Positions 15,590-57,221 of a DNA stretch of 64,000 bases are shown here, piece by piece; positions within the stretch are counted from its first letter, which is position 1, and each line of letters starts with the position of its first letter. The notes under the pieces are model-generated. The model was given only the letters and a program-made list of their open reading frames with translations, ran no database searches and was not told where the DNA came from. Origin of the DNA: Amphiscolops sp. MND2022 (lineage: Eukaryota); NCBI GenBank assembly GCA_964187785.1, contig OZ076409.1, positions 10,108,001 through 10,172,000 of the forward strand. The letters are read 5' to 3'. A program made the translations under genes and the position numbers.

Positions 15590-16425
15590 AGAACATGAGC
15601 CATGAGCCAGCGGCAGTCTTGGTGAAGAAGAAAACAGACGAACTTTGCTTCTGTTGTGACTTTCGTCCCCTGAATAATGTAACTGTGAATGATGCATTGC
15701 CCCTCCCCAAAATTGATGAGAGTCTTTCTCGGACCGGAAACGCGAAGATCTGGTGTGGGCCTTCTGGCAAATTCCACTCACGAAGCGTGACCGAAGGAAA
15801 ACAGCATTTGCTTGCGAACTGGGACTGTTTGAATCGCGGCACCTGCCTTTTGGCCTATGCAATGCATCCGCCACCTTCCAGAGATCAAGTAGAAAAGATC
15901 AGAGAAGTGTTCAAAAGCCTCAGAGAAGCTGGTTTCAGGATGGGAGAGGATAATTGCGTTTTCATGGGCACCGAAACCAAATACCTTGCACAGGTAGTTG
16001 CCGCGGAAATGAATAAAGAACCAGCACTTTCTTCGGAGCAAGCAACATCAAGAAGCAATCAACTCAGTGGAACAAGCACTAGCCGACGCTACTGTTTTGG
16101 CAGCACCGAATGAAGAAGGAAGATTTGTATTAGTCACCGATGCCAGCGCAGTTGCGATAGCTGGAATTCTACATCAAGAACAAAAGCACGATGGAAAAAT
16201 CATCTGACGACCTATCGTTTATGGTAGTAAGTCACTGACACGCACGCAACTAAACTACGGAGCCCCAAAATTGGAGAAGTACGCCGTATTCGATTTCATC
16301 GAAAACTTACACTCGTACCTTTCAGGTCGAGAATTCGTCTTGCGCGTAGAAAATCACGCTCTCTGGTGGTTGAAGACATATTCAATGAATCAAGCCATGA
16401 TCGGACGCTGAATTGCGCGTTGGGC
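15590..16425 (+). pseudogene. pol: Reverse transcriptase (internally deleted, YxDD lost) and RNase H remnant
   Basis: VLVKKK..LCFCCDFRPLN..DALPLPKIDESL; PFGLCNASATFQR joined directly to the downstream REVF segment; FVLVTDASAVAIAGILHQ...YGSKSLT..NYGAPKLE. Confidence 0.9.
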
Positions 16426-16722
16426 TAAGCAAAAGAACCAACGATGACGTGCACCGAGTGAAGATCATTGAGGAATTATCGGATGTGAGCATGGGCTTTA
16501 GCTTCATGTCTTGAAAGGATTACTAAGATTTTCCACTCTGCCATGTTGATAAACATGGACGGCTAATACCAAGCCATCCAGATCATCCGGTAGAAGCTCG
16601 AGCGTAGTTCCTGGTACTATACACACGGAAGAGGAAACCAAGAACCAATTGAAAACCAAGCTTCTAACTCTATCCCTTGGTATCCACAAGTGCAATTAGA
16701 AACATCACCAACCACCTTCGAA

Positions 16723-16728
16723 CACGAA
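16723..16728 (+). other. Left target-site duplication CACGAA
   Basis: Identical hexamer immediately outside both termini. Confidence 0.95.
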
Positions 16729-17084
16729 AGTAGTTAAGATTTCCGCCGGCCTTTCAACGGGGGGGGGGGTCCTCGGTTTTCACGGGGTGGGTCCTTGCTC
16801 TGAAATTTTAGGACCTATCCCTAAAAGGAAGGGGTCCTTCCAAATTGGAGTTCGGAAATACTTCGGCTTTTGACTACGAAAGTAAATTATTGGTCGGATT
16901 CTTTTTGTATTCGTTTTTTGGATTCTTTTTGTATTCGTTTTTGGAATCGGATTTTTGCGAAAGTACATGTAAAAGCGTAGACACTCTTGTTTATTCTTTG
17001 AATGCCTGAAAGTTTGGAAAGTACTAACCTTGAAATTTTGTTGTAATTGAATTGTAAAGCTGGATTGACTAATACTGGTACAAC
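16729..17084 (+). repeat. Left terminal inverted repeat (356 bp)
   Basis: Reverse complement of 33112-33470; by eye two substitutions plus a G11 vs C14 tract-length difference; contains a short ~24-bp tandem repeat. Confidence 0.96.
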
Positions 17085-17404
17085 TTTCTTGTAAATAAAG
17101 GGAGTGGTATTTCCAACTTTCTTATCTGTATGAACACTTAATATTATTAGGAATAGTAATATGCGTTCCTCCAAATGTAGTGGTAGCGGTGTTCTTATTT
17201 CTACCTGTAAAATATCTTAACTTCCCAACAAATTCGTTTTGAATCTACATGTTGTTGCTAACCCCTGACCTACCCAAGTTAAATTTAATATAACTGTAAA
17301 CCACCATTCTTCGTTTCAACTCTTGTTTGAAAACAAAATGAATTTCACAAATTCAAGCTTTATTATGCTGTTAACGTTATACAAAGAAAAATTAGTGAAT
17401 GATA

Positions 17405-20400
17405 TTACTGTAATTCATTATCAATATAAAATTTGACTTTTTTCTGAGGAGGGGGACCACGGGTGGGAACTTCCACTGCTTCACAGTCTAAAAATACATT
17501 TGGTTGGGTATTGGGTAAGTCTTCTTCGAAATCAGACAACTCTGTTAGGTCAATAACGTCTGGTAATTCACTTTCTTCTATTGCATCTTGATTAAGTCCA
17601 GGGTCGGGTGGGGAAAATAAAGCTGGTTGGTTGGAGTTTGACTGTATCGGTGACTGAATAAAGTCCTCCTCCTCGTCCCCCCAATCGCAATCCGCCCCAA
17701 TTTCTCTGAAAATTACGTCGTCTCGCAAAGAATAATGTCCAAAAGGTAAGGTATCAACGCCGTTTGGCATTATATATCTTTTATCGTCAAAACAGCTTAG
17801 AGAAATTTTTGTCGTCTGCAAGGTAAACAGATTATGTCTTTCACTATTTATTGTGTAGTTTAATGTTCTAAGTAGTGTTTCTTTTTCGAGAATTCGATAA
17901 AATACAGAGTGTTGTAGGTTCTTTTGTGCATGTTTGGTGGTTCCTTTTGCAGAAATTTTTAGTTGATCACCCATCGCGATTGAATACAATTTTGATTTTA
18001 GTGCAACAATGCTGTGTATGATTTTACCACCAACTTCGTCTTTGAATTTCAAAGTTTCCAACTTTTGATGTTTGGAATATAGTTGATTATCTTCTTTATA
18101 GTTTGAAAAGTCAAACTCTGGGTGCACTTGTTCGTTTTCTTTGAGGTCAGCGTATATGTCTTCCGATTCGATTTCATAAATTAGGGAATCTGTATCGGAG
18201 TAGAGCACTAATGTTCGGAAGTTTGGTTTCATGTACATGTAATGAAACCAGTACATATGTCGTTTAGATAAATCCAAGATGGTAGCGCCGACTATCGTTG
18301 GCTTGTCCCAGTAAATTTTGCGCTGTGCAAACGTTATGGCAGCCAACTGGTTGTTGAAAATCTTGAACGTTTTCATCCACATTTTGCTTGTTTGCTTTTG
18401 CAACTCATCTTGCGTGCGGACAATCTCAATGGACAATCGTTTTCTTTTACTTTCCATGGTTTTACCAAAAGCAGAGTTGCTCATTAGTTTGAAAAAGTTT
18501 TCTTCAAACTTGTTTGTAGACGCTTTTCGTTTCATTGTGTTTAACTGTATATATGGCTGAAGCCATTTTGACTGTTCAAATTGCAACACTCTATGTACTT
18601 TGGTAACTTGTAACCCCAGTTCACAGTATAATTTCAATGTCATGTAATGTATAGTATAATTGGTTTTGTCGTAGAGTGTTTGGATCAACTTTTTGTTTTT
18701 TGTTGAAAAGGTCTTTGTTCCACTCATTTCCAGCAATCGTGTTTGATATTCACCGAGCCAAAAAAAATTAATTGTTTCCTTCGTAGGAGCCAAAGGGAAA
18801 TCAGTGTGTAAATCGTGCAAATGATCAGGATAATGCAAGTCAACTTCCAATACATATCCAACTGGTGAGTTATTTGGAGTATTTAGTATTTCTTGTAGGT
18901 CAACTTCGCCTTCTCTTTTCAATACAAAGTTTTTTAAAGGCAAGGGGAACTTTTCCATGATTCCTCCATACAAGTTGTTTGCATCAATAAACAACCCAAA
19001 TGTTTGCTTCTGTGAAGAGTTGTATGTTGGTAGATATTTGTTATTTGCTTCAAATTTGCGTTTTGCAAACACGGAAGAAATTCCTCCGCGGATTAGGTTT
19101 TCAGCAACTTCAAGGTGTTCTCGATTAGTTAGTAATTCGATATCTGCGTTGCACACTTTAAGGAAGGCTTCACCGGACAAATTTGACGCAGTATAAAAAT
19201 GAGCACAATCCAGTCCGTAAGTTGCATAACACACTTTTCTAAACTCTTCGAATACCGAGGCCAAAATCAAAACATCGGTGTGTAAATATAAATCGTGATA
19301 GTGACCTAGTGTTTTGCAATCAAACTCTTGGTATACAAGACTAGCATGTTGTAAATCCTGATCACTAATTGTGACTTCACCCCCTGCGAGAGTGTTTTTC
19401 CAAAACTCTTTTGGGGGAAGCTTTTCCTCGACAAATTTATCGAAACTGTCCATGTATGAATAGGGATAAACACCTTTCCTTTTCAGCAAGTCAATTTGCG
19501 ACGGTGTTTTGTATGTATTGAATTGACTCTCCAGATAAATGAATTTATCCTGTGAAAAGAAACCCGCCAGTTTATCTAGTGACTGGGGCATGAACTTGAA
19601 AGAGTCCAAGAATCGCATGTCTTCATATACATTTTTTGTCATTCCATTCTTGTCAGTATATGAGTTTACCCACACAGAAAATGTGAAGGAAATGTACTTT
19701 TCGTCAGTTGTAGGGATAACTGAAAACTTGTTCTTTGGATTACAATTGTTGATTGCCGAACAAATGTGGTGTATATCATATCCAGCCATGTTGTGTGCTA
19801 TCACGGGGGTGAAGTTTATTGACTTCCTTTGTAGATTACATTCTGAATGTGCCCACCCTAGGAATGTACCACTGTAATGACAATGGTCCAACACTTTCTG
19901 CTCGTCATTCGTGAAAGGTTTTTTACAAATCCAACAATCATTTACAGTGTCTTTGTGCGTCGAAGGCTTGCCCTTGTAAATTCGGTGACTTTGTTTTCTA
20001 TGATAAATGTCTGTTGCCAATTTTTCCAATTCTTTTATTAAATCGTCCAAGCAATCGGGACCTCGGATGATTCTGTAAGACAAAACTTTATCATTTCCAT
20101 GTTCTACAATTACAAAAGCATAACCACAAGGCACATGTTTTTCCAACTTTACTTGACTGCTAATGCTGGGTGAAGGAGCGCATGTAGATAAAGGCACTAG
20201 GAGCGCTTCAGTATCAAGGTAAATAACCAGTGGAACAAACCAAACTGCTCTTGTATTTTTGAATTGATGTATGTTTTTATGCTCATCGGGTAAAATGATC
20301 GCCGCGGCCTCGTTTTCGTAACAGTTGAGCTTGTGTATTTCGAAACTCCCGGTTGAACTACAAATATGAAAACAGTTTCTGCAAATTTCATCCCTCGATC

Positions 20401-20965
20401 CACTTTGTTTATTTTTCAAAAAGTTTACAAAATGTTTCAAATCAGTAATCAGTACGTAGTGATGAGAACCTCCTTCTGTCAACAATAAAAGATCCATGAT
20501 AAAGTCACTGGGGAATTTAGAGACTCTGAGAGGTAACAAATCTTTCTTCTCCAATATAAACACATTGACTTGGACTTTGTTGAGTTTTTCGAATCGTTCA
20601 AGTTCATGAAATGGCATTGGCATCCGAAAGTTGCCTGCATGCTTTTTTGCCAGAGGATTATATGTAGGATTATAAGTGCCTGGGTTTGTTTTGCAGCGCC
20701 ACGAACTTGTTTCAACCAATGGTATGTCTGTGTGCAAGTGGTAAGCGGCCGTATAACAATATATAAAGCAATTCTCATCTTCAATGTTCCGAATATTGAG
20801 TAGTGACCTACAACCTTGAAGTTTATTTGGAAGTGCGATGTAAGAGCTACCCCGAATAGGAGAATAGGATGTAAATTTAACAAAAAGGTTTTTAATTTCG
20901 GACAAAATCCACCCACTTCCTTGGGATGCAAAAGTAAATAAAGCTGAAGTAAGTTGTTCTATCAA
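17405..20965 (-). CDS. polB: Protein-primed family B DNA polymerase with an OTU-like region and an inserted endonuclease VII (His-Me finger) domain; true start probably 21571 across one in-frame stop
   Basis: ExoI YLDTE, ExoII HNMAGYD, ExoIII YLHTD, pol motifs DANNLYG, KLMSNSAFGK, YSDTDS; CWIC...DHCH..G..HSECN between ExoI and ExoII; DENCF...HHY OTU-like dyad; AATAAA downstream on the minus strand. Confidence 0.96.
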   Translation of the reverse strand: MIEQLTSALFTFASQGSGWILSEIKNLFVKFTSYSPIRGSSYIALPNKLQGCRSLLNIRNIEDENCFIYCYTAAYHLHTDIPLVETSSWRCKTNPGTYNPTYNPLAKKHAGNFRMPMPFHELERFEKLNKVQVNVFILEKKDLLPLRVSKFPSDFIMDLLLLTEGGSHHYVLITDLKHFVNFLKNKQSGSRDEICRNCFHICSSTGSFEIHKLNCYENEAAAIILPDEHKNIHQFKNTRAVWFVPLVIYLDTEALLVPLSTCAPSPSISSQVKLEKHVPCGYAFVIVEHGNDKVLSYRIIRGPDCLDDLIKELEKLATDIYHRKQSHRIYKGKPSTHKDTVNDCWICKKPFTNDEQKVLDHCHYSGTFLGWAHSECNLQRKSINFTPVIAHNMAGYDIHHICSAINNCNPKNKFSVIPTTDEKYISFTFSVWVNSYTDKNGMTKNVYEDMRFLDSFKFMPQSLDKLAGFFSQDKFIYLESQFNTYKTPSQIDLLKRKGVYPYSYMDSFDKFVEEKLPPKEFWKNTLAGGEVTISDQDLQHASLVYQEFDCKTLGHYHDLYLHTDVLILASVFEEFRKVCYATYGLDCAHFYTASNLSGEAFLKVCNADIELLTNREHLEVAENLIRGGISSVFAKRKFEANNKYLPTYNSSQKQTFGLFIDANNLYGGIMEKFPLPLKNFVLKREGEVDLQEILNTPNNSPVGYVLEVDLHYPDHLHDLHTDFPLAPTKETINFFWLGEYQTRLLEMSGTKTFSTKNKKLIQTLYDKTNYTIHYMTLKLYCELGLQVTKVHRVLQFEQSKWLQPYIQLNTMKRKASTNKFEENFFKLMSNSAFGKTMESKRKRLSIEIVRTQDELQKQTSKMWMKTFKIFNNQLAAITFAQRKIYWDKPTIVGATILDLSKRHMYWFHYMYMKPNFRTLVLYSDTDSLIYEIESEDIYADLKENEQVHPEFDFSNYKEDNQLYSKHQKLETLKFKDEVGGKIIHSIVALKSKLYSIAMGDQLKISAKGTTKHAQKNLQHSVFYRILEKETLLRTLNYTINSERHNLFTLQTTKISLSCFDDKRYIMPNGVDTLPFGHYSLRDDVIFREIGADCDWGDEEEDFIQSPIQSNSNQPALFSPPDPGLNQDAIEESELPDVIDLTELSDFEEDLPNTQPNVFLDCEAVEVPTRGPPPQKKVKFYIDNELQ

Positions 20966-20971
20966 TTGATA

Positions 20972-21571
20972 TTAGTCGTTGTCTGTGATCCCATAAAAGT
21001 AAACTGGTTGCAACTTTGTGTTGGTATAAATTGTGATTGTCTCTTGAGAGTCATCATCAACTTTCGGTTTAACTAACTTCAAATCAGTTGTTAATTGAAA
21101 TTTCTTGGGTCCATTGCGACATTTTTCTCTAATAAGGTTTTGTATTTGATTTTTTTCCTTACAAAGTAGTTCGAATAAATCAATTGATGTGATCCTTCGC
21201 TTGAGTTGATACGTTTCCAATGATCCCCAAAAGGCTTTTTCCACCTGTTGATAACCGGTCATTCTTTCGATGTTGTCATTTTCGCGGGGTGTAAATATTG
21301 TTGGTAAACCATGATCATGCTCAAGATGATACGAGTATTTCATAGCTTCACCGTAAACTATGTTGCAATAAAGGCAATGATTTACTATTATATGTCCATG
21401 TTTTTGTAAAAAATGTTGTTTCATCGTAACCAGAGAAGTGTTTTGAAAATCACAATCGGAGCAAGCAAAAGGTTGAACTTTGGGTTGTGTGTTGTGTATA
21501 TTTTGCTTGTGCCGACGCAAATTTCTCAAAGAACTATATGTTTTTAGACAAAGATCACACTCCACACCCAT
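20972..21571 (-). CDS. Three-C2H2-zinc-finger ORF; probably the N-terminus of pPolB cut off by a single TAA
   Basis: CDLC..HKQNIH, CSDC..HFLQKH, CLYC..HLEHDH; reads GAC-TAA-TAT-CAA-TTG-ATA straight into the PolB frame; ATG at 21571. Confidence 0.85.
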   Translation of the reverse strand: MGVECDLCLKTYSSLRNLRRHKQNIHNTQPKVQPFACSDCDFQNTSLVTMKQHFLQKHGHIIVNHCLYCNIVYGEAMKYSYHLEHDHGLPTIFTPRENDNIERMTGYQQVEKAFWGSLETYQLKRRITSIDLFELLCKEKNQIQNLIREKCRNGPKKFQLTTDLKLVKPKVDDDSQETITIYTNTKLQPVYFYGITDND

Positions 21572-21644
21572 TTTGGAAAGTCGAGTGTTCCTCAATGTTG
21601 AGATTGAGAAAATGTTTTTGCACTTCGCTCCGATCAATTAAGGA

Positions 21645-21885
21645 GGTGATTACCATTTATGGTATCCCGAGCGACTGAATTCTTTGAATTCTGATTCGAT
21701 CACTATTTATGGTATCCCAGGTGCCATTTTTACCAGGAAAATTGTTTGCATGTTCGACTTTTAACAAGGCGATAACCAATTATGGTATCCCGAGAGACTG
21801 GATTTCTTTAAATTTTGATTCGACCACCTTTTACGGTATTCCAGGCGCCATGTTTTTTCCAGGAAAATTGTATGCATGTTCGACT
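21645..21885. repeat. Two diverged ~123-bp direct repeats upstream of the ZnF-PolB start
   Basis: TATGGTATCCCGAG...CCAGGAAAATTG...GCATGTTCGACT at ~21658 and 21781; TA(T/C)GGTAT(C/T)CC occurs four times. Confidence 0.8.
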
Positions 21886-21942
21886 AACTTTTTTTGTTTC
21901 CGTATATTGACTGCTGGGCATTATAGGGGGGGGGAGGAACGG

Positions 21943-23370
21943 GAATTTTTTTCATTTTTTCAAAAAGGTCAAATTTTCCATGCACCCCCCTTTTTCGAAT
22001 TTCATTTTTTCAAAATCGTCTGGCGCACCTACCTGCAAATTTTCAGACCGATCCGACCAACAGTTTTTGAGAAAATTGACATTTTTTGTCAAAAAATGGC
22101 ATTTTAAAAAAATGCATTTTTTGGTCAAAATCTCAACACTCGGTAAAGCTAGCGCCCTGCGGTTTTCACCAGCGTTTTTAGCGTCCTCTTTTTTAGTTGT
22201 GTGCCAAATTTTGGCTCCGAAACTTTTTTCAATGTTGAGAAATGTTTGTTTTTTTGACCGAAAATGATCAAAAATTGAGTTTAAAAAATGTTCAAAATCT
22301 CGTAAACTACGCGACTTTTGAAATTTACTCCTGTGGAAAAGTCTTGTAAATTTTTCACAAACTCAACTCTCAAATTTGGTTTCTAAACAACTTTGACTGC
22401 TTGAACAATCAAATTTCGCCTATAATAGAGGAGTGCAAAGTGAATTTTTCCATTTTTTCAAAAAGGTCAAAATTTCCATGCACCCCCCTTTTTCGAATTT
22501 CATTTTTTCAAAATCGTCTTGCGCACCTACCTGCAAATTTTCAGACCGATCCGACCAACAGTTTTTGAGAAAATTGACATTTTTTGTCAAAAAATGGCAT
22601 TTTAAAAAAATGCATTTTTTGGTCAAAATCTCAACACTCGGTAAAGCTAGCGCCCTGCGGTTTTCACCAGCGTTTTCAGCGTCCTCTTTTCTAGTTGTGT
22701 GCCAAATTTTGGCTCCGAAACTTTTTTCAATGTTGAGAAATGTTTGTTTTTTTGACCGAAAATGATCAAAAATTGAGTTTAAAAAAAGTTCAAAATCTCG
22801 TAAACTACGCGACTTTTGAAATTTACTCCTGTGGAAAAGTCTTGTAAATTTTTCACAAACTCAACTCTCAAATTTGGTTTCTGAACAACTTTGACTGCTT
22901 GAACAATCAAATTTCGCCTATAATAGAGGAGTGCAAAGTGAATTTTTCCATTTTTTCAAAAAGGTCAAAATTTCCATGCACCCCCCTTTTTCGAATTTCA
23001 TTTTTTCGAAATCGTCTTGCGCACCTACCTGCAAATTTTCAGACCGATCCGACCAACAGTTTTTGAGAAAATTGACATTTTTTGTCAAAAAATGGCATTT
23101 TAAAAAAATGCATTTTTTGGTCAAAATCTCAACACTCGGTAAAGCTAGCGCCCTGCGGTTTTCACCAGCGTTTTCAGCGTCCTCTTTTCTAGTTGTGTGC
23201 CAAATATTGGCTCCGAAACTTTTTTCAATGTTGAGAAATGTTTGTTTTTTTGACCGAAAATGATCAAAAATTGAGTTTAAAAAATGTTCAAAATCTCGTA
23301 AACTACGCGACTTTTGAAATTTACTCCTATGGAAAAGTCTTGTAAATTTTTCGCAAACTCAACTCTCAAA
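21943..23370. repeat. 498-bp tandem array (~2.9 copies) inside the Polinton
   Basis: CAAAAAGGTCAAA at 21961, 22459 and 22957; near-identical units; identical spurious ORFs at 22433 and 22931. Confidence 0.95.
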
Positions 23371-23499
23371 AACGATTTCCTAGGCTACTTTAAACAGAAC
23401 TCTGCATAAAATGTCTTTAAATTTCGACGTGGTTAGTAAGCTTTTGACAGTATTTGGTTAGATTGGTTAGTAAGCTTTTGACAGTATTTGTTAGATTGG

Positions 23500-24099
23500 T
23501 TAGAATCGCTTCAAAAGTTTCTTTTCCTGCTGTTTTGCCTTCTTCACTGGTGGTGGCTCCAACGCTGCAGTTCGAGTACTATCAGGCGTCACAATTTGAG
23601 GACTCACTGTTAGATCATCACCATCTTTCGTCTCTTCGTCTTCTGTTGTACAGACCAGAACTTCTGGGGAGACTTGTGGTGATGGAGATTCAGGATCATG
23701 TTCAACTCCCCAAAAATCTTCAAGTGAATCAACCTCCCTGAAGAAACCCATTTGATTCTCTGTTAATGGAACCATTGCGCAGTCGTCTCTACACAGGATG
23801 CGTTTGATTTGTATAGGTAGTATTGGTAGGTCACAACGATGAAGACTTTCTATATCCCAGTTAGACGCTGCTTCACAGTCCACAGAGTCAATCTTTCTCT
23901 TTCTTTCCAGAATCGTCTTTTCAGTCGGTTGTTTGCTCAACTTGTGATAGACCATGTTTGGTAACAGAATATGTTGCTTTGTTTCCCACCGGTCATTTTC
24001 GTCAGACCTCATCTGTTCAATTATTGAGAGCGCTTTTTGAAATTGTGTTTCATAAATGATGAAGCGTTTGCTTGTAAAATGTGTAAAGACAGTAGCCAT
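23500..24099 (-). CDS. Polinton hypothetical protein (199 aa, acidic then basic C-terminus)
   Basis: ATG-initiated ORF; C-terminal NLS-like PPVKKAK; no family recognised. Confidence 0.65.
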   Translation of the reverse strand: MATVFTHFTSKRFIIYETQFQKALSIIEQMRSDENDRWETKQHILLPNMVYHKLSKQPTEKTILERKRKIDSVDCEAASNWDIESLHRCDLPILPIQIKRILCRDDCAMVPLTENQMGFFREVDSLEDFWGVEHDPESPSPQVSPEVLVCTTEDEETKDGDDLTVSPQIVTPDSTRTAALEPPPVKKAKQQEKKLLKRF

Positions 24100-24513
24100 A
24101 GTTGAATCGTCGACTTGGACAAGACCAACTGTTTGAGCGGTAGCGAATTTATCGAATAACGGCTTGAGTTTTGAACGCTAGTGAATCTACAGTTTTTTGT
24201 TTCTCACGGTGGTCCGATTTCCACATGGTAACAATGTGTTTTGAATTATTACATTGAGTCTATTTTGATTTTTCAGATGTTTTGAATTTTAACACCAGTG
24301 TCGTGGCCTGGGCGTTTGCTGTCTACTTGAAAGATCAACGTGGGTGGCAATGATCTTGATTTATCAGTCGGCGGTGCAAGCGTTTGTTGTTTACACGAAA
24401 GATTAAAGCAGGGTGACCAAACCTTGAACCATAAAAGCCCGCCCACCTCAGACATTGACCTTGCAATATTTACCAGGTTCTTCATACTTTTGATTTTGTT
24501 TCCAACATTCAGA

Positions 24514-24909
24514 ATGTTCTCTGGTGATTTTACTCTTGCTAAGGACGAGGATTTTGGAGACTATTACTGTGACTTATCAGAAAAATCCAACAGAATATTG
24601 CGAGCAACGGTGAAAACATACGAGCATACAGGAACCTACGTGTTTCTAAAACTCTTCAAAAAGAAGCCAGACGCCGAATTTGCTCTGGTTCAAAAAATCA
24701 CGTTGACAAAAGAAGAGTTTGAAATTCTACTGTGGAAAGGAAAATCAGTTCTACAACCGTCGAATATCAAAAAAGTTACAAAAAAGTGCAAAAAAATTAA
24801 GAAACCCTCATTTGTTGATTCTGTGGCGGAGGAGGATGACGGGGACAACGTAGACGGAGAAAACAAGGAGAATATTGATCCTAGAAAGTATGGTGGAAGC
24901 AATGTTTGA
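24514..24909 (+). CDS. PC4-like putative ssDNA-binding protein (131 aa)
   Basis: RATVKTYEHTGTYVFLKLF...ITLTKEEFEIL resembles the PC4 beta-sheet plus ISLT..Q/EW..L helix pattern; basic then acidic tail. Confidence 0.6.
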   Translation: MFSGDFTLAKDEDFGDYYCDLSEKSNRILRATVKTYEHTGTYVFLKLFKKKPDAEFALVQKITLTKEEFEILLWKGKSVLQPSNIKKVTKKCKKIKKPSFVDSVAEEDDGDNVDGENKENIDPRKYGGSNV

Positions 24910-25480
24910 GCGTTCTCCCGATTACCTTAAGCAATTTAGAAAAAACTTTCGCTTCTTTTTATTCAAGGAAAAACCCAAAGCTGGCGTGGACTTCCCATTA
25001 GATGTTGTTATTTCCATTGGCTTACACTCACCTGTGCATGATGGGCTTTGTAACGCTTTGCCAGACAATCACTATCATGTTTTGGCCCAGTGTTTTGGTG
25101 AAAATTATAAAGGGCAACCCAAAAGTTATTTATTACCATGTTTATATTCAACCTACGCCTTACTAATTGCAAACAGTGATGAAAAGGAAATATGTGGTGA
25201 AATTTTTGAAAAATTGGATCAAGCCGTTCAATACAATTGTGACCCTCCTAATCGAAACCCAAAGAAACTCTTGCCATCAATCTGTTTTTCTGTTCAAAAA
25301 TGTGACAAGGCTGTGCAAGTCAGCTCTGGGTTGAGTCAAGGAACAATACAACGCTTGGAAAATGTTATGCTTGGACCGTATGGTGGTCATTTCCTACTCA
25401 TTGCTGATATTTTCCAAACTGGTCACGGATCGCTTAATTTTGTGCCTGTACTAACCTTTTCTCTGAATGAAATTGTTTGA
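24890..25480 (+). CDS. Hypothetical protein with an HUH-endonuclease-like motif
   Basis: RFFLF...IGLH...HYHVLAQCFG; overlaps the stop of the PC4-like ORF; AATAAA just after the stop. Confidence 0.6.
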   Translation: MVEAMFERSPDYLKQFRKNFRFFLFKEKPKAGVDFPLDVVISIGLHSPVHDGLCNALPDNHYHVLAQCFGENYKGQPKSYLLPCLYSTYALLIANSDEKEICGEIFEKLDQAVQYNCDPPNRNPKKLLPSICFSVQKCDKAVQVSSGLSQGTIQRLENVMLGPYGGHFLLIADIFQTGHGSLNFVPVLTFSLNEIV

Positions 25481-25510
25481 GAATAAAAATGTTTGAAATT
25501 AAACATTAAA

Positions 25511-25951
25511 TTACATGAGAGTTTTTACAAAGCGAAGCAAATCAGTTTCAGAAATGTAAGAAATCAATGGATAATACGAACTTAACAAAAAATGAGCAAT
25601 ATAAATACAATACAAACCACACAAGTTTGAATTTTGATTTTGTAACGGCGTCTTTGTGGCATCTTTTAATGTCTGCTGAACTTGGATTGGTATCGCGGAG
25701 ATTCTTTTAGCAATATTAGGATAATGTAAAAATAGGTCTAGTCCAAGGGGATCTGCAAAGTTGAAAGTACCTTTCACGTTGCTCCAAACAATCCAATGTT
25801 TCCCAGCGCTGTTTGAGTTTTCTGAATTGACAATTACAAAAGTGTTGTTGGGTAATAGGATAGGAAACTTGTCTGCGGGATAAATTCCTCCAAACTTGTA
25901 TTTCAATCTTGGGCTGTTTTTTATTAGGTGGGCAATGTAATCTTCATCCAT
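25511..25951 (-). CDS. Adenain-like (C5 family) virion maturation cysteine protease
   Basis: GKHWIV, FADPLG, LQNQNSNLCGLYC (His-Asp-Gln-Cys); next to the major capsid gene. Confidence 0.93.
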   Translation of the reverse strand: MDEDYIAHLIKNSPRLKYKFGGIYPADKFPILLPNNTFVIVNSENSNSAGKHWIVWSNVKGTFNFADPLGLDLFLHYPNIAKRISAIPIQVQQTLKDATKTPLQNQNSNLCGLYCIYIAHFLLSSYYPLISYISETDLLRFVKTLM

Positions 25952-25954
25952 TTT

Positions 25955-27262
25955 TCAAGTGGTAGGGTTTAACATGACGTTTTTGGAGACTTTTCTATGA
26001 GAGTCAATGTAAATTGTTGATGCTTTTGCGCCCAACAGAAACACCTCAGTGTTCACTGCCAGCGCTGCTGAAAACTTCAACTCGAGCGAAATGGCAGCGT
26101 TAGTGAGCTCAGGATAAAGAAAATCATGAGATGCTTGTTGGGTGCTTGTCAGGTCAAACACCATTACAAAATGATTAGCATAGTCGGCGAAAGGAATTCC
26201 ATGTCCATGATGACCAAAGGCGAGAGCATCCATTGTTGACATGTAAACTCGTTTTAGATCATCTGTTGCCAAAGGATTTCCTGCACCAGGGTATCCATTC
26301 CGGTAAACAGTAACTTCGTTTAGGTTATGTTTTTGGTAATGAAATGGATTTGTGTCTTTTGAACCAAGAAAAGACGCATTACTGACGAGCGCCAAAGCGA
26401 ATCGTCGAATTGGTTCTCGACTGAAAACGTCTTCCTTACTCCAACTGCGACTACCTGTCGGAATGAGAAATGTTTTGGGTAGAACCTCTGTGTACCGATA
26501 CAGAGCTGGAGTTTTTGTCAGAGTTTTCTCTATGGCTATGAAAACCTGCTCAGAAACTGTCATTTTCCGGACGTAAAGATTGGCTTGGGTAATGGTAATT
26601 TTGTAATTTTTTGCAACGTCATCATGAATCAAAACAAACTCTGGTTTCGAACGGACAAAAGAAATTCGCAAAGTCACTCCACTCAGTAAATGTTTATCAC
26701 AAGAAAATACATCAGCTGCAACTTTTCCAAAAAATGTTAATTCTCCAGACTGTCTCGACTCCAATTCTCTGTTTGTAAATGGAGTTGTTGTACTGTTCCC
26801 AGGATGCTGCTCATATGTATATCCTTGGCAACGTAACCATGTATCTTTGGCTTCCTTGCCATTCGAATATTCGGTTTCAATAAAGGCCTTGTGTGCGTAA
26901 ACACCGTTTGCATTGGAAATTTTTATTCCATTAGCAGTAACAGTGCATTCGGAGAATAGAGAGTGTAATGTATTATTCACAAAAATAGGAGTGTCTGTTT
27001 GTGTTGGATCCGTTGCATCATATCGTAAGTCATTTCCATCGCTTTGTTTATTTTTGCATTTTATCTCGAGAAAAATTTTTTGTATGTCCAAAAAATTATT
27101 TCGGTCTCCTACAACTTCAAATTCCAATGTTAGTCCATTGGGGGAGTAAATCGGGCCAATCTTTTGTTCAAAGGAAGTGTCAAATGTAATCAAAACTGGT
27201 GATCGCTCAAAAATGTCGAGGGAACTATGTGAAGCTTCGAGTGGTAAAATATTAGGCAACAT
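25955..27262 (-). CDS. Major capsid protein (double jelly-roll, Polinton PY), 435 aa
   Basis: SSLDIF N-terminus, LEFEV, NNTLHSLFS...NG, LYVRK, NPFHY, FDLT motifs typical of Polinton MCPs; intact frame. Confidence 0.9.
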   Translation of the reverse strand: MLPNILPLEASHSSLDIFERSPVLITFDTSFEQKIGPIYSPNGLTLEFEVVGDRNNFLDIQKIFLEIKCKNKQSDGNDLRYDATDPTQTDTPIFVNNTLHSLFSECTVTANGIKISNANGVYAHKAFIETEYSNGKEAKDTWLRCQGYTYEQHPGNSTTTPFTNRELESRQSGELTFFGKVAADVFSCDKHLLSGVTLRISFVRSKPEFVLIHDDVAKNYKITITQANLYVRKMTVSEQVFIAIEKTLTKTPALYRYTEVLPKTFLIPTGSRSWSKEDVFSREPIRRFALALVSNASFLGSKDTNPFHYQKHNLNEVTVYRNGYPGAGNPLATDDLKRVYMSTMDALAFGHHGHGIPFADYANHFVMVFDLTSTQQASHDFLYPELTNAAISLELKFSAALAVNTEVFLLGAKASTIYIDSHRKVSKNVMLNPTT

Positions 27263-27625
27263 TTTTGACTTTTGAAAAGAAATCGGACCGACTTCTCTGT
27301 TTGCGTTTTGATTTCGTAATGGTTTTTCGTTTCTTTGAAGAACGTTTGCTTTTTCCACCAATCTGCTTCTTTATCGTCTTTTTCATAGCTGTTTTAGCAG
27401 CCTCACGTGGCGATTTTCGCTTTGCAATAACATCAAAGACCTCAGGGACACTTTGAACGAGCAATTCTTTGCCATTTTTTTTGCAGCAGGTAAAATAAAA
27501 TTTTTTGCAAAGGGTAAAGCCACTCGGCCAATACCGGCTGCCAGTGCACCAATTCCACTACCTCGTTGTCTGTTGTAACTGGCGAAATGGGGTAAATACA
27601 CTTGCTTTGAGTAATAGTCTTCCAT
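27252..27625 (-). pseudogene. Basic core-like virion protein, frameshifted at an A8 run (~27475-27482)
   Basis: YY..Q....QRGSGIGALAAGIGRVALP N-terminus, continued in the -1 frame by GKELLVQ...KQIGGKSKRSSKKRK; QxGxG and QIGG resemble adenain cleavage sites. Confidence 0.8.
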
Positions 27626-28492
27626 TAGGCGAATTTTTTAAATTTTAGGGTCAAAACAACTTGACCTTTACCACAAAAGGGTACCAGGATCCCAGTCTCT
27701 GTTCTGAGTTGAATGCTTATTGTTTGAATATTTTGAACCAACAGTTTCTTGTATTGTAAATCAAAAAATGATCTTGTTTCCAAATTCTGGGTTGTCACGA
27801 CCTTGCCACTTTCAACACGTTTCCCACTATCAATGATTCTCAAAACGGGTGCTTTTACGTCGCCCGTGTTTTGATATTCAATCAAATCAGTGTAAACAAG
27901 AATTAGACTAATGCCAGAAATTCAAATCCACCGGAAAGTCATTCACAACCCATCTACTGTTCAGGATGTCTTCGTTTCCTATATGAATACCAAAAGCAGT
28001 CTCTTTTCCCTTGAATCCAAGTAGGTTGGGGATGTTTCTGTTAGGAAAAGTGTAGCCAGCATATGCATCAAATTTAATTTCTAGGCCATTTTCGGTGGAT
28101 CTATGTTTACCGTCTTCCGTGAGTAAATTTACTTTTGAACGCATTTCAAAAAGTAGGTTGTTGATATGACTGTACATCGAAGGTCTTATCTTTAGTTTTT
28201 GATAATATGGAACAACTGGTTCAGAGTCAATTTCAATTTCCTCTGCTTTTTCTTCATCAATTTCGTCAAGGTTTTCTTCATCTTCCTTCTTTTTGGTAGT
28301 GTGAACGTAATAAAAAAAGTCTGTGTAAACGTTATTAATTTCCGAGGGAAAAATAATTTCTGATAGAGCAACACGCCAGTCGCCTTCCAGGGAAATATTT
28401 TGTGGGAGTTGATTTTTGAATGCTGCCAATGTATTGTCACCAAAAATTTCTAATGACGCTGTGGATAATAAATGAACTTCAAATTCGTCCAT
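27625..28492 (-). pseudogene. Minor capsid (penton-like, Polinton PX) protein, frameshifted near 27915-27922
   Basis: N-terminal FEVHLLSTAS..F.DNTLAAFKNQLP..I.LEGDWRVALSEI; C-terminal LVYTDLIEYQ.TGDVKAPVLRII...ISIQLRT..G..VPF...VLTLKF in the adjacent frame. Confidence 0.88.
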
Positions 28493-29477
28493 TTTTCTTT
28501 TTCACCAAAATCAATTCAGGCTGATAAAACTTGCCCAAGAGTTTTTCCTTCTCAGAGTCCAGTAAGTTGTAAGTTGGGGGATTGAGAGTTGCGATTTTTT
28601 CAATTTGAAAAATTTCGTCGGTAAAATTCTGTTTGTAACCTTTTTTGAAGGGTAAGTTTTCTTTTGACACTCTCACAAAGTCACCGACTCTGAATTTCGG
28701 CACTCGTAGCTGTTTAGTGGACTTGTAAGAAACCAGAGAAATCAAATGAGGTACATCTTTATCTGAAACCTTCTATGGAGCCAATCCTGTCACTCGGTTT
28801 ACTCGTGAATTTATGATGTCAACAAAGTCATGGAGTTTTTTGATGTATTGATAAGACCATCTCTTTTCCAAATGTTTATATATAATGTTTTTTAGATAAC
28901 GAATATTACGTTCTGCAAAAGCAGATTTTGTCTCACTATGAGTGCTGTAAATGTCAATGTTTTTGGAATCGCAGAACTGCTTAAATTCCCCTTTAAACTC
29001 TGATCCCTTGTCTGACCAGATTTTTCCGGGAATGGACTTTGTTATCATTCTTTTGAATGCTCTTGTTGAATCTGCTGCACTTTTTGTTTTCATTGGTTCA
29101 ACCCGTAGGAATCTCGATAGTACATCAACTGCAACTAGCAAGTATTTCACACCGTTGTTGTATTTTGCTAATTTGTCCATATAAGCAACATCTATCGACC
29201 AAATCTCATTGATTCTGTAAGCTTGAACCTTCAATCGTGGAAATTTTTTTCTGGGAGCGTGATATTTTGTATGAGCGTCTGTTTGAGCCAAAAATGTTTC
29301 CACTTTCCTTTTTGGAGGCTTACTAGCTTTTTTCAAGTTTTCAACGCTACCATAAGCAGCTGGACCTTGTGTGTAAAGTTTCTCGAGGGTTTTTCTTTCA
29401 GATTCCGAGAGATGTCCATATTTTCGATCCAGACGCTTTGCTTTTAGCAATTTCTTCAGATTCTTCGTTGCTGGCAT
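28479..29477 (-). pseudogene. int: Polinton rve (DDE) integrase with one in-frame TAG at 28773-28775
   Basis: WSIDV, LVAVDVLSR, WSDKGSEF, AERNIR; after LAP-TAG the frame continues into KFRVGDFVRVS...FKKGY..NFTDEIF...GKFYQPEL. Confidence 0.93.
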
Positions 29478-29982
29478 CTGATTCGTCTCGAGTGGGTTCT
29501 GCTCTCTTTCTTGTTGTACTAGGGTTCAAAATGTTTTTGGCGTTCCGGTTAGGCACTAAATTAGGATTTACCATCAATTCTTTAAGAATGATAGAGTATG
29601 AAGGATCAGTTAGGTTTTTGTTGGGTTGCTGCAGATTATAAAGAAATGTTGAGAGCGAAATTTTTGTGGAAATTTTGTTTACTGTAATATCGCCTGTTTC
29701 ACCAAAATCAATTGTTTCGGAAGATTCAATTTTGTTCAAAATTTCTCTCGTTCTTTGTTTTTGTGCCGCTGTGAGCATATCCAAAGACTTTAAAATATTT
29801 TCTTTACTGGTTTTTTCTTTCTTTTCTACTGTTGAGGGGTCCGGAAAAGTATTGTTTCTTTGCAGTAGAGTGAGAGACTTTGCCTTTTGTTCAACTTCTG
29901 GGTCTCTCAAAACTTGCAGTGTGGAGTGTTTCTGTTGAGTATAAAAACTTTTTGGGATAAGTACAAATTCTTGGGTGTTCAT
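29398..29982 (-). CDS. Polinton hypothetical protein (FVLIP N-terminal motif)
   Basis: ATG-initiated ORF packed between the integrase and the small conserved ORF, overlapping the integrase start. Confidence 0.7.
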   Translation of the reverse strand: MNTQEFVLIPKSFYTQQKHSTLQVLRDPEVEQKAKSLTLLQRNNTFPDPSTVEKKEKTSKENILKSLDMLTAAQKQRTREILNKIESSETIDFGETGDITVNKISTKISLSTFLYNLQQPNKNLTDPSYSIILKELMVNPNLVPNRNAKNILNPSTTRKRAEPTRDESDASNEESEEIAKSKASGSKIWTSLGI

Positions 29983-29990
29983 AACGGAAT

Positions 29991-30293
29991 TCAATCTGTC
30001 AGGTAACAGAAACAAGGCCGAATAATAAAATTTAACAATTTGAGACCTTTTGGTGACATTAAAATTTTTCTGCGTTCCTTATTGGAGGTAGACCTTTTAC
30101 AAAGTAATCTGAGTTGGATTTCGTACTGTTTTAATTCGTCCACGTTGATACCAACCGTTCCATTCACAACATTGATTGCACACTCGCAACAAAATTTCAA
30201 AAATTCCTTGTCACAATGTCGTAGAAGTTTTTGTTGCTGTACTGAAGTGAGTTTTTCCAAGAGACTGAGTGTATGCAAATTTTTCTCGCTCAT
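29991..30293 (-). CDS. Small conserved Polinton-type protein (100 aa)
   Basis: CECAINVVNG.V...RRKIL..KG..LL pattern recalled from small ORFs beside Polinton ATPases; not verified by search. Confidence 0.7.
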   Translation of the reverse strand: MSEKNLHTLSLLEKLTSVQQQKLLRHCDKEFLKFCCECAINVVNGTVGINVDELKQYEIQLRLLCKRSTSNKERRKILMSPKGLKLLNFIIRPCFCYLTD

Positions 30294-30936
30294 TGTTAAT
30301 TTCTGTAATTTTTGCTTGTGACGAAGGCAAATAAAATATTGTTGGTCCTGGTCCTACAATGTTTGAACAAAAGCGTAGACATTCACTTGTCTTTGGATCC
30401 AAATCAATGAGTAAATGACCATGTGGTTCTGCAACAGCGTCTGTGTAGCACTCTTTTAGAAATACAGCTTTGTTTAATTGTCTTCCAAGATATTCAATTT
30501 GCTGTGTGTCACGAGGAGAATTAAAAAGAATAATGTGGGTTGTGTTGAGGTCAATTGTACGTGACCACTTACTTTGATGATACAAATTATGTTTGACAAA
30601 AATACAGTTAATTCCTCTGTGTCGGCCAGAGACTGCAATTTTTGCAAAGTTTTTATCTTGGTAAATTTCTTCGCAAGAGTCGTCAAATATCAGCAAACAC
30701 TCCTGAAGCGTCTTTATCAAATCAAAATCTAGACAACTGATAAACTCGATGTTCATCCGTTTTTCCACTTCTTTGAAAATTTGTTGGAACTCGCGATAAA
30801 AGTAGTAAATTTTTTGAAAGCGTGGATAAAAGGTCTTGGATGTGAGCATAGAAAAAATCAGTCGGGTTTTTCCAGATCCAGATGGTCCAACAACTGACAT
30901 GAAAACTCTTTCTGTAGTAAAAATGATTTTGTTCAT
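30211..30936 (-). CDS. A32/FtsK-like DNA packaging ATPase
   Basis: Walker A GPSGSGKT, Walker B LLIFDD, GRHRGI motif, HLLIDL. Confidence 0.95.
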   Translation of the reverse strand: MNKIIFTTERVFMSVVGPSGSGKTRLIFSMLTSKTFYPRFQKIYYFYREFQQIFKEVEKRMNIEFISCLDFDLIKTLQECLLIFDDSCEEIYQDKNFAKIAVSGRHRGINCIFVKHNLYHQSKWSRTIDLNTTHIILFNSPRDTQQIEYLGRQLNKAVFLKECYTDAVAEPHGHLLIDLDPKTSECLRFCSNIVGPGPTIFYLPSSQAKITEINNEREKFAYTQSLGKTHFSTATKTSTTL

Positions 30937-31211
30937 AATTTTGGGCTAGGTAAAAGATATCCAACTGATCCAGCCAAAAGTGATGTCCAAAATGGCATGT
31001 CTTCACATGATACTTCAAAAAAGATTAGTTTCACCAGACAAATTGTTATCACAAAGAAAGCTGAGAATACATGAACAAAAAATATAACTTGCGATCGTGG
31101 TATGTTTGTAGCAAAACAAAATTTCCAGGCTGGTCTCTCATTATTATCTTTATCGAACACAATTTCTTGACATGATAATACATCTGGTAAATCAACTGTT
31201 TCTGAACCCAT
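30933..31211 (-). CDS. Small two-transmembrane protein (92 aa)
   Basis: Two hydrophobic segments ending GYLLPSPKL; its stop overlaps the ATPase ATG (ATGA). Confidence 0.75.
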   Translation of the reverse strand: MGSETVDLPDVLSCQEIVFDKDNNERPAWKFCFATNIPRSQVIFFVHVFSAFFVITICLVKLIFFEVSCEDMPFWTSLLAGSVGYLLPSPKL

Positions 31212-31548
31212 TTTTCAAAAAGTGTACTACGAAATTATTAAATTCAATTCCAGTTAATTGTACATTATTACACACACGGCGTATATCAGAAATGGTTCAA
31301 AATTGTTAAATAAAATGTTAGTACAAAAGATACAAAAAAATTGTACTGCGGAACATCATGCATTGTTTCCTTAGTACGTGCCGGACCTTGTGTGTCGTTT
31401 ACACAAGTTTTTTGTTGGCTGTCAATGTTGAGGTAGGTTAAGGTGCAGAGACAAGATTTTTCATGCCATTGAGGCACCGAAGGACTACACTACAGAGAGA
31501 GTTAGTTTCAAAACAAAAAAAAAGCATTATATCAAATCACACAAAAAG

Positions 31549-31893
31549 TCAGTTCAAACTTTTGCTCCTTGGTAAGACGAATATTCTTTGGGTTTCCAGC
31601 ATTATAAATGAATTCCATTCTTTATCTTTTGTTTCCAAATCGATTTTGAATTTTGAGCCAGTTTTCCCAGATCCGTAATAGAACCAAATTCTGAGGACAC
31701 TTTTGGATTTGACTACGTCCCTCACTTCTTGTGGTAGATTCGGGCAATTTTTGTCAATTTCGACAGGAGGAGGTGGCCTGGAAATGTGCATGTTTAAAGG
31801 AGGTAGTTTCTTTTTCATCCTGGACAGTTTTGAGTCTCGTGCACTAGAAGCTACTGACATATTCTTTCCAAAAGTCCTGCTTGCTTCCACCAC
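31549..31893 (-). CDS. Polinton hypothetical protein (start uncertain)
   Basis: ORF directly downstream of the nuclease-like gene on the same strand; no motif recognised. Confidence 0.5.
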   Translation of the reverse strand: MVEASRTFGKNMSVASSARDSKLSRMKKKLPPLNMHISRPPPPVEIDKNCPNLPQEVRDVVKSKSVLRIWFYYGSGKTGSKFKIDLETKDKEWNSFIMLETQRIFVLPRSKSLN

Positions 31894-31897
31894 ACCA

Positions 31898-32467
31898 CTA
31901 TTGTTTGGAACAGCCTACACACAAACGCTCAAGTTTGGAGTCAACTTTTGATTGGTTTGCATTGCGCCTACTCTCTAACCACTGATAAGCAACAGCAGTT
32001 TTCAATTTGCTGCAGTGCCAGAAATGTTGTTGTTGACTATTCCATGGGAGAAAGTTTGCGTGGTTCCCACAAGAAACCACAGCATTAACACATAAATGTT
32101 TAATTGGGGGACAACCAAGCCTTTGCAAAATGTAAACTTTTTTAAAATAGTTGGAGATAAATGCTCTCTTCACATGTCCGTCGACAAAAACAATTGCGTT
32201 GGGAAAACGAAGTCGTAAACTGGCCAAATAATTATGGATAGAAGTGTAAGGGTAAACGCCACTGTCCCAGTCAATACCGTGTATTCTTTTTGTTAAGAAT
32301 ATTATCGAGTCGCGGTTAATAGTTGAAATTGTGGAAAAGGCTTGAGGAGGTTTAAAAAGTAGGGTTTTTTGATAATTTTTACTGTGAACGCTCAGCTCTT
32401 TAACGATAAGACCGTTGTAGTCAAACCCTTCAAAGTCAATAACAAGAATTTCGTTCTCATTCAACAT
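31898..32467 (-). CDS. DEDD/DnaQ-like 3'-5' exonuclease-fold protein (189 aa)
   Basis: ILVIDFEGF ExoI-like motif, IVKELSV, LFKPP, IHGIDWDSG; C-terminal Cys/His cluster. Confidence 0.7.
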   Translation of the reverse strand: MLNENEILVIDFEGFDYNGLIVKELSVHSKNYQKTLLFKPPQAFSTISTINRDSIIFLTKRIHGIDWDSGVYPYTSIHNYLASLRLRFPNAIVFVDGHVKRAFISNYFKKVYILQRLGCPPIKHLCVNAVVSCGNHANFLPWNSQQQHFWHCSKLKTAVAYQWLESRRNANQSKVDSKLERLCVGCSKQ

Positions 32468-32871
32468 TCCAATTCACGGAACCAGTGGGCTTGTGCTGAA
32501 TATTTGAGTTTCAAAATGCTCCAGAGAGGGCGAACTGAGCATGACCAAATTTTTTGCAATCTGGTTCTTCTATCCAAGCAGTCACACACGTCACTAAACG
32601 TCCCCATAAGCTCTTGCGAGTCGCGAACAATCACAAATAATCTGTACACTTTGCAATACTTGTAGAAAATTTCACATTTGATTTCTGGTTCTTCTTTCAA
32701 CAAATATTTCAAATGGCCCAAAGTAATGTTGTTGAAGTTGCATTTTTTTAGATATACCAAACAAAAACTTAGCACATACTTTTGATAAGTTTCGAATTTG
32801 TCCGAATTGTCTAATGAAAGTCTATGAAAAGTTTGCTGCACTTTTACAACGTCTATTTTTTGGGGGTCCAT
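32461..32871 (-). CDS. Polinton hypothetical protein (136 aa)
   Basis: First ORF inside the right TIR; its stop overlaps the next ATG (ATGTTGA). Confidence 0.6.
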   Translation of the reverse strand: MDPQKIDVVKVQQTFHRLSLDNSDKFETYQKYVLSFCLVYLKKCNFNNITLGHLKYLLKEEPEIKCEIFYKYCKVYRLFVIVRDSQELMGTFSDVCDCLDRRTRLQKIWSCSVRPLWSILKLKYSAQAHWFRELEC

Positions 32872-33111
32872 TTCCAATTTTGATTCTCGATTCTCAGCAT
32901 TCCTTCCTGCTGCTGATATTTGCTTTATAATGAATTTTTATCAAAACACGTTCGTAACATCAGACGAATAATGCATTCGAACAAAACTGTACATAAATTT
33001 CACACCCTCTCGTACCCTATTAAACTTTGGTGTGAATTATACGACAAACTAGATTACTTTTTATTGGCCGATCGATCGCTTGGCACAACAATACTACAAC
33101 CCGACTTAGTT

Positions 33112-33470
33112 GTTGTACCAGTATTAGTCAATCCAGCTTTACAATTCAATTACAACAAAATTTCAAGGTTAGTACTTTCCAAACTTTCAGGCATTCAAAG
33201 AATAAACAAGAGTGTCTACGCTTTTACATGTACTTTCGCAAAAATCCGATTCCAAAAACGAATACAAAAAGAATCCAAAAAACGAATACAAAAAGAATCC
33301 GACCAATAATTTACTTTCGTAGTCAAAAGCCGAAGTATTTCCGAACACCAATTTGGAAGGACCCCTTCCTTTTAGGGATAGGTCCTAAAATTTCAGAGCA
33401 AGGACCCACCCCGTGAAAACCGAGGACCCCCCCCCCCCCCGTTGAAAGTCCGGCGGAAATCTTAACTACT
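33112..33470 (-). repeat. Right terminal inverted repeat (359 bp)
   Basis: Reverse complement of 16729-17084; ends CTTAACTACT. Confidence 0.96.
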
Positions 33471-33476
33471 CACGAA
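33471..33476 (+). other. Right target-site duplication CACGAA
   Basis: Matches 16723-16728. Confidence 0.95.
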
Positions 33477-33713
33477 AGATCGAATTACCGAATTGCATCC
33501 TTGGTGTAACCGCCAAAGTGCCTCCGGGACGCATAGACACGGTAGAGCCTGACCCAAACTTATGGAGACTACCATCGACGTGCCGAGAGCAAGCCGATGT
33601 CTTCTGATTGGTGGGGACAAAATTGCACGAACACCAACCGACACAGCGTGGCCTCAAAGACCTACGGCTGGCGCAAAACCGAGACGTCCACCTCCCAGCG
33701 TTGAAAAGCCTAA

Positions 33714-33913
33714 NNNNNNNNNNNNNNNNNNNNNNNNNNNNNNNNNNNNNNNNNNNNNNNNNNNNNNNNNNNNNNNNNNNNNNNNNNNNNNNNNNNNNNN
33801 NNNNNNNNNNNNNNNNNNNNNNNNNNNNNNNNNNNNNNNNNNNNNNNNNNNNNNNNNNNNNNNNNNNNNNNNNNNNNNNNNNNNNNNNNNNNNNNNNNNN
33901 NNNNNNNNNNNNN
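33714..33913. other. Assembly gap, 200 N
   Basis: Run of 200 N. Confidence 0.99.
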
Positions 33914-49160: not shown

Positions 49161-49406
49161 CCTGTCCTGACACCGAATGTTTGATGAACGATAGGTGGCC
49201 CAGGAACGTGCCTGAGAAAGTCTTGTGCCAAATGCTGACCCAAATTTGGCACCCAGAGTTGTCCACCTAAATGTATTTCACCACCAATTTCGTGGTCTTT
49301 CGAAGCTGGAACCCGAAGAGTTGATTATATGGTTAGATACGAGCCCAATTAAACAATGCCATTTGCACAGCGCGAAAATTTCTGCACGAACTACTTCATT
49401 TACGGA

Positions 49407-57220: not shown

Positions 57221-57221
57221 A

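Follow-up and report, generated by a model that had tools for sequence, protein, structure and literature searches.

Does the Polinton that interrupts a stretch of the genome of Amphiscolops sp. MND2022 still encode a working virus, and what does it carry besides the expected genes? The stretch analyzed, called here the window, is 64,000 nucleotides long (assembly GCA_964187785.1, contig OZ076409.1, positions 10,108,001 to 10,172,000), and all coordinates below are positions within it. An initial annotation had described window positions 16723 to 33476 as a complete endogenous Polinton/adintovirus with intact ends and a full virion module, a hallmark gene set from which virions were predicted. 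The ends, the target-site duplication (TSD), the insertion into a gypsy pol gene, the gene set, four gene breaks and many near-identical sister copies were all observed, and the locus is very probably a full-length endogenous Polinton/Maverick that inserted recently into a decayed gypsy element of an animal genome and has decayed neutrally since. It is a defective young Polinton from a recently amplified, already known family. The Polinton/adintovirus identity and the intact ends were borne out by the terminal inverted repeats (TIRs) and TSD, by Pfam matches, by the fold of the major capsid protein (MCP) and by the motifs of the DNA polymerase B of the protein-primed type (pPolB). Completeness, a full virion module and predicted virions are not supported for this copy, since breaks interrupt its polymerase, its integrase and its penton and core genes; these four breaks had been overlooked, as had an opposite-strand open reading frame (ORF) of 196 amino acids (aa).

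Insertion site and core genes

The boundaries of the element are formed by the following features.

16723 to 16728, + strand: left TSD, CACGAA (read from the sequence)
16729 to 17084, + strand: left TIR, starting AGTAGT (repeat alignment)
33112 to 33470, - strand: right TIR, ending ACTACT (repeat alignment)
33471 to 33476, + strand: right TSD, CACGAA (read from the sequence)

The Polinton spans 16,742 bp (16729 to 33470) between the CACGAA duplications, a 6-bp flank match that would arise by chance with a probability of about 2.7e-4. The duplication is perfect, as had been annotated, and its length is that usual for Polintons (5 to 8 bp, usually 6 bp); the termini are likewise of the Polinton kind ((AGT)2 or (AG)3). 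The TIR arms could be aligned over about 356/359 nt and differed by the two substitutions expected from the initial annotation, plus a 3-nt length difference within a G run. GC content was 0.372 within the element versus 0.48 in each 5-kb flank. When compared with a better-kept gypsy frame at 59851, both flanks proved to derive, in colinear order, from one and the same decayed gypsy pol, the left flank (16422 to 16589) corresponding to residues 21 to 77 and the right flank (33569 to 33712) to residues 172 to 219. Because the flanks are colinear halves of a single pol, the insertion is genuine within the limits of one assembly. Established Polinton biology suggests that the integrase would have made this 6-bp staggered insertion and that replication of the linear genome would have been protein-primed, starting at the AGTAGT ends.

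Seven core genes, all on one strand, were assigned as follows.

17405 to 21571, - strand: pPolB frame, 1388 codons (motifs; homologues)
25511 to 25951, - strand: adenain-type cysteine protease, 146 aa, open (Pfam E 5e-5; His/Asp/Gln-Cys motifs)
25955 to 27262, - strand: MCP, double jelly-roll, 435 aa, open (predicted fold)
27252 to 27625, - strand: putative core gene with a basic C-terminus (position and candidate motifs)
27625 to 28492, - strand: putative penton (minor capsid) gene (position)
28479 to 29477, - strand: retroviral-type integrase with D-D-E motifs (Pfam rve PF00665, E 4e-11)
30211 to 30936, - strand: A32-like packaging ATPase, 241 aa, open (Pfam E 2e-6; Walker A and B)

The hallmark gene set is thus present, with penton and core assigned by position, but four of its genes are not intact. 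The order integrase-penton-core-MCP-protease was found. The pPolB frame contains N-terminal C2H2 zinc fingers, an endonuclease VII/HNH-like insertion, and exonuclease and palm motifs in the correct order, and its 1574 homologues, many bearing a precomputed PF03175, identify it as a protein-primed family B polymerase, albeit from a broken gene. The Polinton's own pPolB gave no PF03175 match in Pfam and no match in a search of a phage collection. The endonuclease VII-like insertion was considered as a special trait of this polymerase and ruled out, since a matching motif was present in 112 of the 120 homologues listed; endonuclease insertions are known in Polinton polymerases (PMC10748475, PMC11161782). 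PF00665 together with the D-D-E motifs identifies a retroviral-type integrase, although its gene is broken, and Pfam matches and catalytic motifs identify both the ATPase and the protease.

The MCP model (pLDDT 85, built with a 66-sequence alignment) matched the double jelly-roll capsids of Sputnik (best, E 7e-16), PBCV-1, an iridovirus and mavirus. Scans of viral contigs with the MCP and with its alignment found no relative, and a metagenome scan returned two short loci that were 53 to 57% identical. Neither the penton nor the core gene was identified by sequence searches of Pfam and PDB; both are putative assignments from their location between the integrase and the MCP and from candidate motifs, the penton as a possible single jelly-roll protein and the core product as possibly pVII/PW/'Cupiennin'-like. 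Polyubiquitin matches of one penton piece were rejected as noise added up over repeats, since no single stretch passed. By analogy with established Polinton biology, the MCP, penton, core protein, ATPase and protease would build an icosahedral particle.

Gene breaks and sister copies

Two of the four breaks are in-frame stops and two are frameshifts. The pPolB frame is stopped at 20972 to 20974 (codon 200), and the integrase is stopped at 28773 to 28775, with loss of its last 97 codons; the penton is frameshifted at about 27922, and the core gene at about 27470 to 27510, where its distant homologues switch frames. The element is consequently not an intact Maverick as defined in PMC8097293, where all core ORFs are uninterrupted. 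Because full-length polymerase, integrase, penton and core protein are not encoded, this copy is nonautonomous; proteins supplied by sister copies could at most mobilize its intact ends.

At three of the four breaks (pPolB, integrase and penton), there are sister proteins that run on uninterrupted. The pPolB stop was crossed in frame by eight fetched sister proteins and the integrase stop by three, and the two penton frames were joined in 6 of the 15 penton-cluster members listed. The truncated 199-aa pPolB piece and the 194-aa penton piece were each found on one contig. Across 13 ORFs, 34 missense differences from sister alleles were counted in 3632 codons, or about 0.4% at the DNA level, a value that is an upper bound because two of the comparators are single-contig alleles. 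At the observed missense rate, 2.4 nonsense changes were expected and 2 were seen, an agreement that fits neutral decay. Together with TIR arms that differ at 2/356 sites, the divergence from sisters supports the fairly recent insertion that had been proposed.

Identical proteins were found on 51 contigs for the protease, 39 for a 131-aa ORF, 31 for the ATPase, 25 for a 92-aa ORF and 24 for a 103-aa ORF, the longest of these contigs being 0.65 to 0.93 Mb; since several assemblies may contribute to these counts, they are not per-genome copy numbers. The 131 members of the MCP cluster were not used as a copy number because the cluster includes an unrelated 199-aa protein. The expectation of intact relatives was realized in part: close relatives exist (identical proteins on 24 to 51 contigs), but no full-length, normally ending pPolB was present among the 15 listed members of its 122-member cluster, where the longest reached 1345/1388 codons, and no full-length, normally ending penton was present among the 15 listed of its 41-member cluster. 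In a separate observation, the MCP differed from the commonest sister allele at 9/435 residues and the protease, the ATPase and several small ORFs at none; the excess in the MCP possibly reflects chance or a recombined segment.

In all four sequencing runs, two of which resemble a single data set, most of the Polinton was covered by a relative about 94% alike, and not by this insertion; contig depth in such data cannot separate many copies from free virus. The only organism-named rows among the best 120 MCP and the best 120 pPolB hits belonged to the acoel Convolutriloba macropyga (57 to 59% and 53%). Judged from these named matches, all below 60% identity, the host is probably an acoel. In another acoel genome, Mavericks make up 4.5% and gypsy elements 28% (PMC6451197).

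Several observations weigh against a real, decayed insertion of this kind. The junctions and the gene breaks rest on one assembly, and the contig pieces listed from the four runs included neither a junction-bridging piece nor an empty-site joint. The core break coincides with an A run, and at least five other contigs carry the 80-aa core form that it produces; this shared form may be inherited or may be a recurring assembly error. Many sister proteins are themselves frameshifted at single-contig sites, a pattern that fits either decay or an error-prone assembly, and one sister protein (P0194) ends no more than four residues from the position of the pPolB stop. The frameshifts could thus be assembly errors. 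Taken to its full extent, this would mean that all the breaks are erroneous, that the animal carries an intact copy and that virion formation is possible. The A run, the private frameshifts and a scaffold gap of 200 N that lies 240 bp beyond the right end of the Polinton speak for such an explanation, which we nevertheless regard as improbable: all four breaks would have to be wrong, two of them are in-frame stops without a change of frame, and the number of stops agrees with that expected from the 34 missense differences.

A second alternative is that the breaks are the natural organization of the element, with the terminal protein split from the polymerase or with programmed read-through or frameshifting in the integrase, penton and core gene. 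In adenoviruses, the terminal protein is separate from the polymerase. The pPolB stop at codon 200 precedes candidate vOTU motifs, a Cys motif at codon 265 and a His motif at codon 370, and the 80-aa core form is common to other contigs. A natural split of terminal protein and pPolB occurs in a Stylophora (coral) polinton (PMC11161782), and slippery sites have been proposed in adintovirus pentons (PMC11071296). However, sisters at 98 to 99% identity have single frames across the pPolB, integrase and penton breaks, the first ATG beyond the pPolB stop is codon 317, past the putative vOTU cysteine, and the pPolB and integrase stops are different codons. A natural organization is accordingly very improbable, and neutral decay after a recent insertion is the explanation that we prefer.

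A predicted HUH-like gene on the opposite strand

Two ORFs, of 131 aa and 196 aa, are carried on the strand opposite to the core genes. The longer one is the subject of this section.

24890 to 25480, + strand: 196-aa ORF whose N-terminal domain is HUH-like (H..C..HYH..PCLY), with a small helical domain at the C-terminus (model, alignment)

Among 50%-identity representatives, 132 hits to this ORF were obtained, a few of which are repeat-driven noise, leaving about 130 distant relatives. The query and 54 hits picked by length and coverage were aligned, and residues are numbered on the 195-aa query. Histidines H60 and H62 and a third histidine were each present in 51 of the 55 sequences, and all three occurred together in 45; the H-U-H metal-binding motif is therefore present. 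Two cysteines were conserved to the level of the histidines (C83 in 55/55 and C53 in 51/55). The candidate catalytic tyrosines were more variable, with Y85 in 37/55, Y114 in 40/55 and neither in 17/55, and no sequence had a lysine at Y85+3.

In the predicted structure (pLDDT 89), the H-Y-H opens one strand and the third histidine closes another. When the model was searched against 48,161 chains, the top eight were all HUH Rep nucleases, with weak Z scores of 4.1 to 5.0 (rmsd, 3.0 to 4.0; 76 to 97 residues aligned), followed by the origin-binding domains of SV40 and papillomavirus. The top PDB rows in Foldseek were pMV158 RepB (E 0.045, short of the tool's threshold), and in the viral library most of the named rows among those shown were NS1 of parvoviruses or Rep of CRESS viruses or microviruses (E 0.03 to 0.3). 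The case for an HUH fold is thus the agreement of three libraries with the motif, with a single model behind all three, and against it stands the fact that no HUH score passes a tool threshold (best Z, 5.0; Foldseek E of at least 0.027). On balance, the 196-aa ORF probably has an HUH-derived fold.

The same data allow another interpretation, which we consider possible although not favored, namely, that the protein is unrelated to HUH nucleases and is a small zinc-binding alpha/beta domain whose matches reflect an RRM/ferredoxin-like arrangement. The subthreshold scores would be expected from this, RRM/ACT-like folds follow close behind the HUH rows (Z 3.0 to 3.9), the cysteines are as well conserved as the histidines, and the 17 relatives with no tyrosine at either candidate position also fit. 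Profile searches of Pfam and PDB with the family alignment gave no match, and an ESM Atlas search with the ORF gave no usable match. The uniform HUH composition of the top eight chains with viral origin-binding domains behind them, the pMV158 RepB rows that head the Foldseek PDB search, the NS1 and Rep proteins that prevail among the named rows of the viral library, and the placement of the H-Y-H at the start of one strand and of the third histidine at the end of a second all argue instead for the HUH-derived fold.

Given an HUH-derived fold, DNA binding is more likely than cutting because the candidate catalytic tyrosine varies, and it is doubtful that the protein is an active nickase. The gene would most likely encode a metal-binding, HUH-fold DNA-binding domain acquired from a rolling-circle replicon. 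Its relatives may also sit in Polintons, on indirect evidence: one HUH-family protein, one MCP and one integrase have longest contigs of equal size (15,348), as do another HUH-family protein and a pPolB (7,623).

The main interest of the locus lies in the retention of this HUH-like accessory gene across some 130 distant relatives, together with the recent burst to which dozens of near-identical sisters point; the host could be screened for expression or particles. If the 196-aa protein nicks DNA, animal Polintons would gain a second, rolling-circle-type tool that could serve, for example, in releasing the integrated genome or in initiating replication at the central repeats described below, and the protein would be a testable enzyme for the exit of Polintons from the chromosome. 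As of 2021, no Maverick particles had been observed (PMC8097293). In its broadest form, as a marine-invertebrate polintovirus lineage very recently amplified in its host and characterized by a conserved stand-alone gene of HUH nuclease fold beside pPolB, the model-based interpretation is one that we put forward tentatively and hold to be unlikely as a whole.

Remaining features and comparison with known systems

The rest of the element comprises a central repeat block and eight further accessory ORFs.

21644 to 23503, no strand: central noncoding repeat block of 124-bp x1.9, 498-bp x2.9 (98% alike) and 34-bp x2.2 units (repeat analysis)
23500 to 24099, - strand: 199-aa accessory ORF, no family found; 7 contigs carry a near-identical allele (Pfam, clusters)
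24514 to 24909, + strand: 131-aa accessory ORF, identical on 39 contigs (clusters)
29398 to 29982, - strand: 194-aa conserved ORF adjoining the integrase, no family found; 23 contigs carry a near-identical allele (Pfam, clusters)
29991 to 30293, - strand: 100-aa ORF (open frame)
30933 to 31211, - strand: 92-aa small hydrophobic, probably membrane, protein (sequence)
31549 to 31860, - strand: 103-aa accessory ORF, no family found; 24 contigs carry an identical protein (Pfam, clusters)
31898 to 32467, - strand: 189-aa DEDD/Maelstrom-like ORF (weak named hit)
32461 to 32871, - strand: 136-aa accessory ORF, no family found (Pfam)

In the repeat block, the relative about 94% alike has one 34-bp unit fewer in all four runs, and depth is elevated across some of the block; natural variation in repeat number is therefore probable. 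Folding of one 498-bp unit was better than that of its shuffles (z -2.7). The idea that the 131-aa ORF is a PC4-like single-stranded-DNA-binding protein found no support in Pfam or PDB and was dropped. The 100-aa ORF may resemble the PZ/'GasderminX' class. At residue 12 of the 92-aa ORF is an L-x-C-x-E motif, which is short and may be due to chance. Published adintovirus maps already hold MAEL, SSDBP and SLATT accessory genes (PMC8502044, Fig. S2), and these cover the 189-aa ORF and perhaps, as candidates, the 131-aa and 92-aa ORFs.

Outside the element, the 200-N gap occupies 33714 to 33913. A second, better-kept gypsy element at 55083 to 63805 encodes gag, protease, reverse transcriptase, RNase H and integrase in one frame with several in-frame stops; it and the gypsy interrupted by the Polinton belong to one family, with 32 to 80% protein identity over the matched pieces. 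Positions 1 to 14200 hold near-identical segmental repeats of gypsy gag-region sequence (spacings of 3150, 5003, 925 and 289 bp; 96 to 100% alike), which are either a recent tandem duplication or assembly redundancy. An intronless host-like ORF at 46577 to 47509 has a signal-like N-terminus, a PAN domain and a C-type lectin domain, and short inverted repeats with a 14-bp tandem array at 48843 to 49820 are possibly a small nonautonomous DNA transposon.

Animal Polintons/Mavericks are the closest comparison. Intact vertebrate Mavericks average 16.9 kb with TIRs of 402 bp, and AGTAGT/ACTACT is the commonest Maverick end motif (PMC8097293); the present element resembles them in its 16.7-kb length, TIRs of about 360 bp, 6-bp TSD and (AGT)2//(ACT)2 ends, in its pPolB, integrase, ATPase, protease and MCP, and in the order integrase-penton-core-MCP-protease. 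It differs from them in having all its core genes on one strand (as reported for Xenopus), in its four broken genes, and in its opposite-strand gene pair with the HUH-like ORF. The polintovirus family is now named Eupolintoviridae, formerly Adintoviridae, within Polintoviricetes (PMC12451622).

By description, the element also resembles the Beta-class adintoviruses (Terrapene type; PMC8502044) in a pPolB without a PF03175 match and in a MAEL-like accessory gene of the kind on published adintovirus maps (PMC8502044), but many relatives of its pPolB, unlike that class, do carry PF03175. An HUH label is absent from the searched part of the PMC8502044 supplement, and a targeted literature search found no report of an HUH gene in animal Polintons in the passages covered; the 196-aa ORF may already be listed in published supplements, for example under an 'Adintoc' name. 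Some of the small genes may be like Cupiennin and GasderminX of the Beta module.

The HUH Reps (nanovirus, circovirus and vientovirus Rep, pMV158 RepB, and AAV Rep) share with the 196-aa protein the predicted fold over residues of about 17 to 110, the H-U-H motif and the third histidine. In contrast to them, the 196-aa protein stands alone, without a helicase or Y-x-x-K, and has two conserved cysteines and a partly conserved tyrosine. HUH genes are also found in small double jelly-roll double-stranded DNA viruses, namely, mriyaviruses, the Zora/VC218 polinton-like viruses and Gulliviroviridae-type virophages, and some such viruses also bear an rve integrase (10.64898/2026.06.19.733378; 10.64898/2026.10.13.758929). 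Those viruses belong to other capsid lineages, and their HUH proteins are thought to serve in replication initiation, whereas the HUH-like gene described here belongs to an animal Polinton and has a protein-primed polymerase for a neighbor.

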